From Escherichia coli (lineage in GTDB: Bacteria; Pseudomonadota; Gammaproteobacteria; Enterobacterales; Enterobacteriaceae), in NCBI RefSeq assembly GCF_003334255.1, contig NZ_QOWU01000039.1: a stretch of 49,222 nucleotides of DNA; one strand, written 5' to 3'. The notes beneath the pieces are model-generated. The model made no database searches. It was not told where the DNA came from and saw only the letters and a list, made by a program, of their open reading frames with translations. Made by a program: the position numbers and the translations under genes. Positions 24,118 through 47,153 of this stretch are shown piece by piece. Within the stretch, counting starts at the first letter, position 1; each line of letters opens with the position of its first letter.

Positions 24118-24510
<393 letters not shown>

Positions 24511-24556: not shown

Positions 24557-24598
24557 ATCTGCAGATTATGCCTGATTACGGTATTGCTATTTTTTGCA

Positions 24599-24629
24599 GG
24601 CCAGATAAGGCGTTCACGCCGCATCTGGC
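24599..24629. repeat. REP element (GGCCAGATAAGGCGTTCACGCCGCATCTGGC)
   Basis: Matches the canonical E. coli REP palindromic unit. Confidence 0.7.
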
Positions 24630-24648
24630 ATTCAGAACACAAAACCGA

Positions 24649-27919: not shown

Positions 27920-27996
27920 CGGCACGTAGCGCAGCCTGGTAGCGCACCGTCATGGGGTGTCGGGGGTCGGAGGTTCAAATCCTCTCGTGCCGACCA
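27920..27996 (+). tRNA. proL: tRNA-Pro (anticodon GGG)
   Basis: 77 nt CGGCACG...CGUGCCGACCA; acceptor stem pairs 7 of 7; T-loop GGTTCAAATCC; anticodon loop AUGGGGU; encoded CCA. Confidence 0.95.
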
Positions 27997-31710: not shown

Positions 31711-31809
31711 GCCTGATGCGCTACGCTTATCAGGCCTACGTGGATCGATCAATTTATTGAATTTACACAATTTTGTAGGCCGGATAAGGCGTTCACGCCG
31801 CATCCGGCA
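31711..31809. repeat. Pair of REP elements (BIME-like) in the narP 3' UTR, flanked by two similar hairpins (31662-31686 and 31839-31861)
   Basis: GCCTGATGCGCTACGCTTATCAGGCCTAC and GTAGGCCGGATAAGGCGTTCACGCCGCATCCGGC. Confidence 0.75.
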
Positions 31810-31838
31810 TAAACTAAGCGCACTTTGTCAACAGTCTA

Positions 31839-43523: not shown

Positions 43524-44007
43524 GGAGATACTCCGCAGTTATGGCTGATACCGGACAGCTGGCTGCACATGCTCCACATCCGTTGCAAAGTTGGCTATTA
43601 AGTTGCGGCTGGTAGATCCCGGAGAGCGTCGGGCGAAAGATAATTGCCATTGGCTCACAGCTATCCTGACAGCGGCGGCATTCAACTGACTGATACGCCA
43701 GGCACGCGTCCCCGATGGTGAACTGCAAATCCCAGGCCCTGGTGTGGCGCGGAGAAAATAGCGATTCGGGGCAAGCCTGCGCGCAGGCGTAACAGAAGCT
43801 GCACTCGTTATTTTTGAAATTAACGCTCGGATAGCCGCCCGCGCCGCGTTGCAGAATGTTGTTTTCACAAGCATTAATACAGGCGTCGCAGCGGGTGCAA
43901 TGGGTCAGAAAATGAGATTCATCACCGGACCAGGGCGGACGGATACCGTTACTGGCTTTGCGCCAGCGACCAGTGAGTATGCCCCGACGGGATGCATCAA
44001 TCTTCAC
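43513..44007 (-). CDS. napF: Ferredoxin-type protein NapF
   Basis: 164-aa ORF; multiple CxxCxxCxxxCP motifs; first gene of nap operon. Confidence 0.95.
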   Translation of the reverse strand: MKIDASRRGILTGRWRKASNGIRPPWSGDESHFLTHCTRCDACINACENNILQRGAGGYPSVNFKNNECSFCYACAQACPESLFSPRHTRAWDLQFTIGDACLAYQSVECRRCQDSCEPMAIIFRPTLSGIYQPQLNSQLCNGCGACAASCPVSAITAEYLHAH

Positions 44008-44232: not shown

Positions 44233-44414
44233 GATTCACCAGAGATATTTCTGCTGGTTTGCTCTCTCATTAGAATTTAACACTAAAAGAGCAGGTAAAA
44301 TTGTCTGAATGTTCTTTAAGTTATTCATAAAGCAAATTAATAAATCTGATGAATATGTTAACCTTCAGCGACATCATCGGTGAAAACCTATAAATGAAGA
44401 AGGAAAGCAAAAAA

Positions 44415-44903
44415 ATGAAGACCATTCTACCTGCAGTATTGTTTGCCGCTTTCGCTACCACTTCCGCCTGGGCGGCAGAAAGCGTCCAGCCACTGGAAAA
44501 AATCGCGCCTTATCCACAAGCTGAAAAAGGGATGAAGCGTCAGGTGATTCAGTTAACCCCGCAAGAAGATGAATCTACCCTGAAAGTAGAACTGTTAATC
44601 GGTCAGACGCTGGAAGTCGATTGCAATTTGCATCGTCTCAGCGGGAAGCTGGAAAACAAAACGCTGGAAGGCTGGGGCTATGATTATTATGTCTTTGATA
44701 AAGTCAGTTCCCCGGTTTCAACGATGATGGCCTGCCCGGATGGCAAGAAAGAGAAGAAATTTGTCACCGCGTATCTGGGCGATGCTGGAATGCTGCGTTA
44801 CAACAGCAAGCTGCCGATCGTGGTGTATACGCCAGACAATGTAGATGTGAAGTACCGCGTCTGGAAGGCGGAAGAGAAAATTGACAACGCGGTAGTTCGC
44901 TAA
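44415..44903 (+). CDS. eco: Ecotin, periplasmic serine protease inhibitor, 162 aa
   Basis: Start [20 protein letters not shown] (signal peptide) inside ORF 44394..44903. Confidence 0.95.
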
Positions 44904-44905
44904 AC

Positions 44906-45462
44906 TGCCGTGAAGTGCGGCACCCCGTAGGTCAGACAAGGCGGTCACGCCGCATCCGACATCCAACGCCCGAGCCGGTTGCCTGATGCGACGCTGGCGC
45001 GTCTTATCAGGCCTACACCGCTGTGAAGTGCTCCACCCCGTAGGTCGGATAAGGCGGTTACGCCGCATCCGACATCTAACGCCCAAGCCGGTTGCCTGAT
45101 GCGACGCTGGCGCGTCTTATCAGGCCTACACCGCTGTGAAGTGCTCCACCCCGTAGGTTGGATAAGGCGGTTACGCCGCATCCGACATCCAACGTCCGAG
45201 CCGGTTGCCTGATGCGACGCTGGCGCGTCTTATCAGGCCTACACCGCTGTGAAGTGCTCCACCCCGTAGGTCGGATAAGGCGGTTACGCCGCATCCGACA
45301 TCTAACGCCCAAGCCGGTTGCCTGATGCGACGCTGGCGCGTCTTATCAGGCCTACACCGCTGTGAAGTGCTCCACCCCGTAGGTTGGATAAGGCGGTTAC
45401 GCCGCATCCAACATCTAACGCCCGAGCCGGTTGCCTGATGCGACGCTGGCGCGTCTTATCAG
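44906..45462. repeat. Tandem array of about 4.9 copies of a ~113-bp BIME unit (each unit is two REP sequences in opposite orientation) between eco and mqo
   Basis: Units begin at 44906, 45021, 45134, 45247 and 45360; read directly; they generate five overlapping spurious 67-122-aa minus-strand ORFs. Confidence 0.85.
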
Positions 45463-45494
45463 CATACGCATACCATGCCGGATGTGGCGCATCA

Positions 45495-47153
<1,659 letters not shown>

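Follow-up and report, generated by a model that had tools for sequence, protein, structure and literature searches.

Two classes of BIME have been described. BIME-1 elements, known also as RIB or RIP, consist of a Z1 and a Y unit, occur as a single copy and contain a long L linker, frequently with an IHF site. BIME-2 elements consist of Z2 and Y units in tandem; their short linkers differ from locus to locus, and their copy number from strain to strain. The y REPs are the REPs preferred by DNA gyrase. The K-12 element in the gap between eco and mqo is listed as BIMEs2 'eco>-<mqo', with a length of 654 bp (Sutormin et al. 2018, Table DS3). It contains 11, 7, 2 and 5 gyrase cleavage sites in the Cfx, RifCfx, Micro and Oxo Topo-seq experiments, respectively, and its entry is annotated 'Espeli, Boccard 1997: 6 cuts'. 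Gyrase cleavage sites are depleted in the BIME-1 elements of that table. The Harris et al. 2026 supplement names the MG1655 eco-mqo element REP161.

A further tandem array, REP325 (the naRNA1-6 array), lies between yjdM and yjdN, with units in the order Y-l-Z2 (Qian 2015). The same study reported that naRNA4 binds HU and affects the nucleoid, and that many REPs are transcribed. Harris et al. 2026, whose authors include the senior laboratory of Qian 2015, observed that nucleoid volume stays the same whether REP325 or naRNA4 is deleted or overexpressed, and found neither a stable HU-DNA-RNA ternary complex nor REP-REP contacts in Hi-C. They describe REP325 as a partly Rho-dependent attenuator and mRNA stabiliser, whose transcripts form a ladder with hairpins at their ends. 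REPs located between convergent genes were associated with a higher expression of the two genes, and terminal REPs had no general effect on mRNA half-life (Harris 2026). The BIMEs of the REPtron, which flank the transposase gene tnpAREP (RAYT, yafM), are likewise built of Y and Z2 units of the BIME-2 class.

Here, we analysed a 49,222-nt stretch of Escherichia coli contig NZ_QOWU01000039.1, referred to as the window. Tandem Repeats Finder identifies a tandem array at 44910-45462 with a period of 113, 4.9 copies, 95% matches, no indels and a score of 1015, which makes it the strongest repeat of the window by a wide margin. The array is located in the 591-bp gap separating the convergent genes eco and mqo and lies wholly between both stop codons. 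The ecotin gene eco occupies 44415-44903 on the plus strand (stop codon at 44901-44903), as given by the ORF list and by RefSeq annotation, including that of the near-identical strain G1/2; its open frame also permits a start at 44394. The malate:quinone oxidoreductase gene mqo occupies 45495-47141 on the minus strand (stop codon at 45495-45497; ORF list and RefSeq annotation). All matching RefSeq genomes annotate the flanks as convergent eco and mqo, which bears out the position between these two genes given in the initial annotation. The neighbourhood comprises yojO-eco on one side and mqo on the other. No transposase gene is adjacent, in contrast to the BIMEs of the REPtron, which adjoin tnpAREP.

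We identify this array, with high confidence, as an allele of K-12 REP161, the BIME-2 of the eco-mqo gap; the allele of the window strain is composed of five 113-bp units and non-coding. Nothing was found that contradicts this identity. The array is thus an already known and ordinary element, a catalogued BIME-2 gyrase site, and adds one allele to a known polymorphic gyrase-site array. It shares with K-12 REP161 the locus, the 113-bp unit and the edge units. As far as the CAG at 45462, window units 1-5 show no difference from MG1655 units 1 and 3-6; from there onward, the repeat register of the window ends and a degenerate Z2 tail begins. MG1655 possesses six units, the first one being duplicated, whereas the window possesses five.

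On the plus strand, each unit is arranged as a Y-type REP, a 20-nt linker, an inverted Z2-type REP and a 23-nt linker, or in letters GTGAAGTGCTCCACCCC, Y, the 20-nt linker, Z2 and ACCGCT. The Y unit reads GTAG-GTCGGAT-AA-GGCG-gtta-CGCC-GC-ATCCGAC, with an AA/GC bulge, and the Z2 unit reads GCCTGAT-GC-GACGC-tggc-GCGTC-TT-ATCAGGC-CTAC. Each unit holds two oppositely oriented imperfect palindromes with a two-base stem bulge, as in REP/PU elements, which are imperfect palindromes of 30-40 nt with a conserved GTAG at the 5' foot, and the array is extragenic and multi-copy, as REPs are. The initial annotation had described a unit of about 113 bp with two opposed REP palindromes in about 4.9 copies, and both Tandem Repeats Finder and the in-register comparison of the units agree with it. 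We assigned Y and Z2 by means of the y REP sequence in the literature, the z-specific TGCC|TGAT site and the identity with the Y-l-Z2 units of REP325. The TGCC|TGAT site occurs in z and is absent from y inverted REPs (Ton-Hoang et al.), and the Z2 of the array carries it. Compared to the 'y REP' in the co-crystal with TnpAREP, the Y of units 2 and 4 has 2 mismatches in 32 positions.

The array is preceded by a leader linker at 44904-44926 (ACTGCC followed by GTGAAGTGCGGCACCCC), which, with the units aligned in register, corresponds to the GTAG-side linker between units (ACCGCT followed by GTGAAGTGCTCCACCCC). Since its first six bases, ACTGCC at 44904-44909, are equivalent to the inter-unit ACCGCT, the array effectively begins 1-3 nt past the eco stop codon; the start at 44906 in the initial annotation takes in this ACTGCC. 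All five units are oriented on the plus strand. Unit 1 (44910-45022) comprises Y at 44927-44960, the linker at 44961-44980 and Z2 at 44981-45016, ending in CTAC; its Y consists of GTAG and a degenerate stem, GTCAGAC/ATCCGAC. Unit 2 (45023-45135) comprises Y at 45040-45073, the linker at 45074-45093 and Z2 at 45094-45129. Unit 3 (45136-45248) comprises Y at 45153-45186, the linker at 45187-45206 and Z2 at 45207-45242, and its Y stem, GTTGG/CCGAC, contains a T.G wobble on the plus strand only. Unit 4 (45249-45361) comprises Y at 45266-45299, the linker at 45300-45319 and Z2 at 45320-45355. The terminal unit 5 (45362-45468) comprises Y at 45379-45412 with a compensated stem (GTTGG/CCAAC), the linker at 45413-45432 and a degenerate Z2 at 45433-45468. 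GTAG lies 5' of all five Y units on the plus strand, and CTAC follows the Z2 of units 1-4. The terminal Z2 reads CAG-CATAC where the internal units read CAGGCCTAC, so that the minus-strand GTAG is lost; Escherichia sp. E1V33 retains GGCCTAC at this position.

Units 2 and 4 are identical, and the pairwise differences among units 1-4 amount to 4-7 of 113 positions in register, while unit 5 leaves the 113-bp register past 45462. A repeat search additionally returned a 226-nt family spaced at 113 nt, and units 2-3 and 4-5 form a 226-bp super-repeat. An inverted-repeat search with a minimum arm of 14 nt returned no pairs in the array, because the REP arms are short and interrupted; the hairpins were therefore established by folding. 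Folding predicts the Y and Z2 hairpins for both strands, and whole units are more stable than shuffled sequences, with z of about -3, as seen for unit 2, where both hairpins form on either strand (z -3.1 and -3.7). The exception is the plus strand of unit 1, which reaches only z -1.4 because its Y stem is degenerate.

The array displays all BIME-2 sequence features that we examined, namely Y and Z2 in alternating orientation, tandem arrangement, short linkers and variable copy number. The initial annotation had called it a BIME array; it can now be placed more precisely in the BIME-2 class (Y and Z2 in tandem), catalogued both as REP161 and as the BIME-2 'eco>-<mqo'. BIME-1 elements share with it a Y unit with an inverted partner, an extragenic location and a position at the 3' ends of transcription units. 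However, they contain Z1, are single-copy and carry an L linker with an IHF site, whereas the array contains Z2, is tandem and is devoid of the IHF core consensus. The IHF core motif WATCARNNNNTTR has ten sites in the window, none of them within 44904-45494. The two classes also differ in that BIME-2 is enriched for gyrase cleavage and BIME-1 depleted. The initial annotation had stated that such arrays bind IHF and gyrase. The gyrase part stands, as cleavage has been published for this very locus in its K-12 allele; the IHF part does not, as it is a property of the BIME-1 L linker and the array contains no IHF core motif. DNA gyrase cleaves this locus preferentially in vivo, as published for the six-unit K-12 allele. 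A CRISPR array was considered as well and rejected, as the entire 113-bp unit repeats, including both linkers, and no unique spacers are present.

Several open frames run through the array on the minus strand. The longest encodes 122 aa (44718-45086) and reaches antisense into the 3' end of eco; it is without a PGAP call or a credible family. Three frames encode 78 aa each. The one at 44945-45181 (MRRNRLIQPTGW...) recurs as an exact copy 226 bp away, at 45171-45407, and the one at 45076-45312 is 94% identical to it over 72 aligned residues, with its DNA offset by one unit. The fifth frame encodes 67 aa (45302-45505), and its start overlaps the stop region of mqo. The peptide MRRNRLIQPTGWSTSQRCRPDKTRQRR... 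quoted in the initial annotation corresponds to the 78-aa ORF. As the 113-bp period is not divisible by three, the ORFs overlap one another in shifting frames. It could be argued that they are real small protein genes, as open frames of 67-122 aa do exist and the 78-aa product is deposited in GenBank as a 'hypothetical protein', in a 46-member cluster with many members labelled 'partial'. Against this, the frames rotate from unit to unit, and one ORF runs antisense into eco and another into the mqo stop. In all ten RefSeq records with an intact eco-mqo gap that we inspected, the array is free of PGAP gene calls, and an NCBIfam scan of the five products yielded no family match, the sole hit being a meaningless 13.5-bit match to PnuC. 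Furthermore, in E. albertii, unit-length changes of 1-2 nt re-cut the ORFs into pieces of 40-133 aa without conserved boundaries, and variation among units preserves the DNA or RNA stems, not codons. The probability of genuine small protein genes is consequently close to nil, and the dismissal of these ORFs as phantoms in the initial annotation was correct. For annotation, the region is best masked as REP161/BIME-2 and the 67-122-aa ORFs left uncalled; copies of them are already present in GenBank.

To survey the locus, the joined flanks without the array were queried against 5426 complete E. coli genomes, and a systematic sample of 60 of 5422 was parsed. One unit is present in 38 of the 60 genomes, three units in 2, four in 3, five in 7 and six in 9, and in one genome the array is interrupted by IS621. 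A 59-nt unit-to-unit junction is found at full length in 2008 of the 5426 genomes, with a maximum of 11 matches per genome. The number of junction matches equalled the number of units minus one in all three genomes checked, and by extrapolation from the single genome with 11 matches, arrays of about 12 units may exist. Among deposited genomes, BLR(DE3) carries seven units, MG1655 six, XL1-Blue five, as in the window, and MG1655-pvir three. The copy-number polymorphism anticipated from the window is thereby evident, with 1, 3, 4, 5, 6 and 7 units across the genomes compared and 6, 5 and 3 among K-12 derivatives.

The same variability raises the question of whether the array is real but its count of five units reflects collapse or expansion during assembly. 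A 63-aa partial form of the ORF is indexed in 41 collection blocks, 24 contigs of which were read, and among the matches listed it touches the contig end beside eco in six of six places. This indicates that draft assemblies break inside the array. The supposedly near-isogenic K-12 derivatives, deposited with 6, 5 and 3 units, may include cases of collapse, and the identical units 2 and 4 create a situation that favours it. On the other hand, the separately deposited complete genomes G1/2, G6/7 and G8 share both the five units and a 10-bp deletion (see below), XL1-Blue and seven of the 60 sampled genomes also carry five units, and the whole array of about 560 bp is below typical long-read length. 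We consider an assembly artefact in this count quite improbable. The expectation that the region is prone to misassembly is nevertheless supported by the partial ORFs at contig ends beside eco and by the K-12 derivatives at 6, 5 and 3 units. Short-read unit counts of the array should hence not be trusted, and the main practical value of our analysis lies in annotation and assembly.

In the parsed alleles, gains and losses affect internal units only, while the first and last units stay fixed, and all length changes correspond to whole units or to the 226-bp dimer, in register. Presumably, identical units recombine or undergo replication slippage, which adds or removes units, perhaps with the aid of TnpAREP, the REP-associated transposase. 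As all junctions are in register, RecA, slippage and TnpAREP are indistinguishable from sequence. The one-unit allele joins the left part of the first unit to the right part of the last, and for this reason it is most simply explained as a collapse. Judged from this structure, the array has probably fallen to one unit in most lineages.

The array may also be seen as a neutral or selfish, non-autonomous REP/BIME element, multiplied by TnpAREP (RAYT) and recombination without host benefit at this locus, with gyrase cleavage and hairpin effects as mere by-products. This explanation shares its identity with the one we prefer and differs only on the matter of host benefit. In keeping with it, the unit number ranges from 1 to at least 7 without obvious constraint, the commonest allele being a single degenerate unit, and the edge units are decaying, as seen in the loss of GTAG and in stem mismatches. 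The Y units moreover keep the GTAG and the stem bulge that TnpAREP needs for binding and cleavage, matching the crystallised substrate at 30 of 32 positions, and matches to the two consensus sites of in vitro cleavage, TGCC|TGAT and GGCC|TACA, are present in every full unit. Two observations speak against it. The array has been kept at one locus through several Escherichia species, and its palindromes are much more conserved than its linkers and show compensatory stem changes, although homogenisation could yield the same pattern. We regard a purely neutral or selfish array as possible, but unlikely.

These two observations derive from a pattern scan with one genome per species and from a comparison of units. 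The unit of the array is found at the same locus in four other Escherichia, with about 6.5 units, more diverged from one another, in E. albertii, about 2.5 in E. whittamii, three in Escherichia sp. E1V33 and one in Escherichia sp. MOD1-EC7003. The array consequently predates E. coli. Four pattern matches outside Escherichia (Planctomycetota, Acidobacteria, a proteobacterial MAG and Nocardia) were discounted as chance-level, since 19 specified bases in 298 Gb are expected to give approximately the number seen. Across 30 distinct units, including those of REP325, 98% of stem cells are paired, compared to 26-41% after sliding of the partners. Hardly any variation is seen in the Z2 stem, while two pairs of the Y stem changed on both sides, one as U-A/C-G and one from C-G to U-G to U-A. 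Differences per site amount to 0.03-0.06 in palindromes and 0.12-0.29 in linkers, so that the palindromes are 2-5 times less variable. The covariation is thin, as the majority of stem columns do not vary and the units are recent duplicates of one another. This conservation of the stems is compatible both with constrained hairpins and with homogenisation by other REPs. Together, the age of the array beyond E. coli, its probable collapse in most lineages and the loss of a terminator hairpin in the window lineage reach modestly beyond textbook knowledge.

The array is furthermore closely related to REP325. Both are Y-linker-Z2 tandems sense to the upstream gene, with nearly identical palindromic units, the Y stems differing by one compensated pair, C-G to T-A. 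In contrast, the REP325 unit measures 100 bp instead of 113, its linkers of 12 and 17 nt are unrelated in sequence to the 20- and 23-nt linkers of the array, and REP325 lies between tandem genes of one operon, while the array lies between convergent genes. Scored against the naRNA4 model (Rfam RF02564, gathering score 59.5), the five units reach 61.9-76 bits on the plus strand, the eco-sense orientation, with 63.7 bits for unit 1, 76 for unit 2, 74.2 for unit 3, 76 for unit 4 and 61.9 for unit 5. The minus strand of the units attains only 25.8-41.6 bits, and nothing else in the window reaches the gathering score.

The scores could be read as marking naRNA4-like non-coding RNA genes, in which transcripts from the eco promoter are processed to Y-linker-Z2 RNAs of about 80 nt that bind HU, bridge cruciform DNA and condense the chromosome, as modelled for REP325 by Qian et al. 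2015. All five units pass the RF02564 threshold in eco-sense orientation, their palindromic units equal those of REP325, and HU binding, nucleoid effects and widespread REP transcription have been reported (Qian 2015). Yet the Rfam model in effect detects any Y-linker-Z2 unit of a BIME-2, and the score thus reflects repeat homology, not function. As REP325 has equal Y and Z2 units and unlike linkers, the naRNA4 score marks the array as a paralogue of REP325. The nucleoid, HU-complex and Hi-C negatives of Harris et al. 2026 and the single degenerate unit of most E. coli at this locus weigh further against such RNA genes, and we consider them very improbable.

We favour another role for the REP161 allele. 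The array would lie in the 3' untranslated region common to the convergent eco and mqo transcripts, where its RNA hairpins, on either strand, may block 3' exonucleases and read-through, as experiments have shown for the homologous REP325. This functional part is weaker than the identity of the array, since 38 of the 60 sampled genomes have a single degenerate unit and the multi-unit array is therefore dispensable. In addition, the gyrase data come from the six-unit K-12 allele, and Harris 2026 saw no general influence of terminal REPs on mRNA half-life. The barrier role of the hairpins might weigh more in the window lineage, as the dedicated terminator hairpin on the mqo side is deleted there. 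REPs close to a stop codon can stall ribosomes. For eco, such stalling was set aside, as the first stem begins 27 nt past the stop codon.

Most E. coli possess a perfect 18-bp palindrome (AUACGCCACAUCCGGCAU, loop ACC) past the array, a few bases from the mqo stop codon. In the window, the left arm of this palindrome has been lost through a deletion of 10 bp (CACATCCGGC, junction 45469|45470), and allele comparison reveals a remnant at 45463-45494 with the right arm only (ATGCCGGATGTGGCG), whereas the hairpin of MG1655 REP161 is intact. The mqo end folds with -14 kcal/mol in the window (z about 0) compared to -38/-39 in MG1655 (z -9.3/-6.7). With the left arm lost, the mqo-end hairpin is gone in the window. 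The deletion is present in 3 of the 5426 complete E. coli genomes, namely G1/2, G6/7 and G8, which are human faecal isolates from Germany, and the window differs from G1/2 by a single base over 1771 bp. This loss of the hairpin in the window lineage is the one feature of the locus without an earlier description. Searches for intrinsic terminator patterns and promoters found none in the eco-mqo gap, with counts no higher than in shuffles.

The Harris supplement lists the mqo-end hairpin for eco:mqo, convergent, REP161, and judging by the main text, the table contains the REPs within 306 bidirectional terminators of an earlier study. If this listing is right, eco transcripts would normally cross the whole array, and eco and mqo of the window lineage would be left with REP hairpins only, their shared terminator hairpin having been lost. 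We speculate, while regarding it as rather doubtful, that in the deletion lineage the eco and mqo transcripts would end or gain protection within the array itself, and that the number of units might tune expression or supercoiling. If true, the window lineage would represent a natural experiment, with two genes whose only 3'-end element is a REP array, and the unit number, from 1 to at least 7, would constitute a heritable, quickly mutable dial for eco and mqo expression or local supercoiling.

The initial annotation was silent on the naRNA4 scores, the arrays of other Escherichia, the IS621 insertion and the 10-bp deletion that destroys the mqo-end hairpin. A query containing the array matches each E. 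coli genome at a median of 14 places. Within the window, the REP core pattern has 20 matches compared to 2.5 expected, 14 of the 20 being located inside the array, and two solitary Y REPs are found elsewhere.

In the deposited genomes of K-12 derivatives, the array between eco and mqo consists of six units in MG1655, five in XL1-Blue, and three in MG1655-pvir. The length steps between these alleles correspond to exact whole units. Either the array is rapidly unstable in the laboratory, or it has been collapsed during assembly.

The 113-bp unit of the window array is also arrayed between eco and mqo in other members of the genus. The E. albertii array (locus L018, 9848-10619) is composed of about 6.5 units, with the GTAG foot mutated to GCAG or ACAG in several of them. 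Arrays of about 2.5 and 3 units are found in E. whittamii (L021) and Escherichia sp. E1V33 (L024), respectively. The locus of Escherichia sp. MOD1-EC7003 (L022) carries one unit, followed by unrelated sequence in place of mqo.

The array of E. coli 2017-02-2CC (L014, 4104-5871) is interrupted by IS621, a member of the IS110 family, which sits in the first Z2 unit, within its CTAC tail, with ...TTATCAGGCCT on one side of the element and ACACCGCTGTGAAG... on the other. REP sequences are preferred targets of IS621, and the position of the element is consistent with this preference. Because the eco and mqo flanks are too distant for joining in 48 of 5422 genomes, it is probable that this locus harbours further insertions, or arrays of great length, in other genomes.

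Within the window array, the Y stem of unit 3 (45157-45186; columns 26/51 of the unit alignment A1) features a T·G wobble, paired on the plus, eco-sense strand only and presenting a C·A mismatch on the mqo-sense strand. The same wobble is seen in several units of other strains in A1, and unit 5 bears a fully compensated T-A pair at this position. The wobble may hint that selection acts on the eco-sense RNA, or it may be a neutral intermediate.

On the mqo side of the array, 10 bp (CACATCCGGC) are missing from the window at 45463-45494, with the junction between 45469 and 45470. Their loss removes the left arm of an 18-bp perfect hairpin adjoining the mqo stop codon, given as a terminator hairpin for eco:mqo in the supplement listing of Harris 2026. 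Its predicted fold in MG1655 (-38 kcal/mol) is abolished in the window. Among 5426 complete genomes, just three (G1/2, G6/7 and G8) have this deletion as well.

At the opposite gene, the eco start differs among RefSeq annotations (44394 versus 44415), the same DNA being annotated as a 169-aa or a 162-aa product.

Across the whole window, 10 sites fit the IHF core consensus WATCARNNNNTTR, compared to 3.1 expected from shuffles; none of these sites lies inside the array, and one (43683-43695) lies inside napF. Two solitary Y-type REPs are located outside the array: a canonical one (GTAGGCCGGATAAGGCGTTCACGCCGCATCCGGCA, 31776-31810) and a variant (GCAGGCCAGATAAGGCGTTCACGCCGCATCTGGCA, 24596-24631), in which GTAG is changed to GCAG and one stem pair is compensated from G-C to A-T. 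In an Rfam scan of the window, a tRNA (27920-27993) and the L25 ribosomal-protein leader (24179-24204), both unrelated to the array, exceed their gathering scores.
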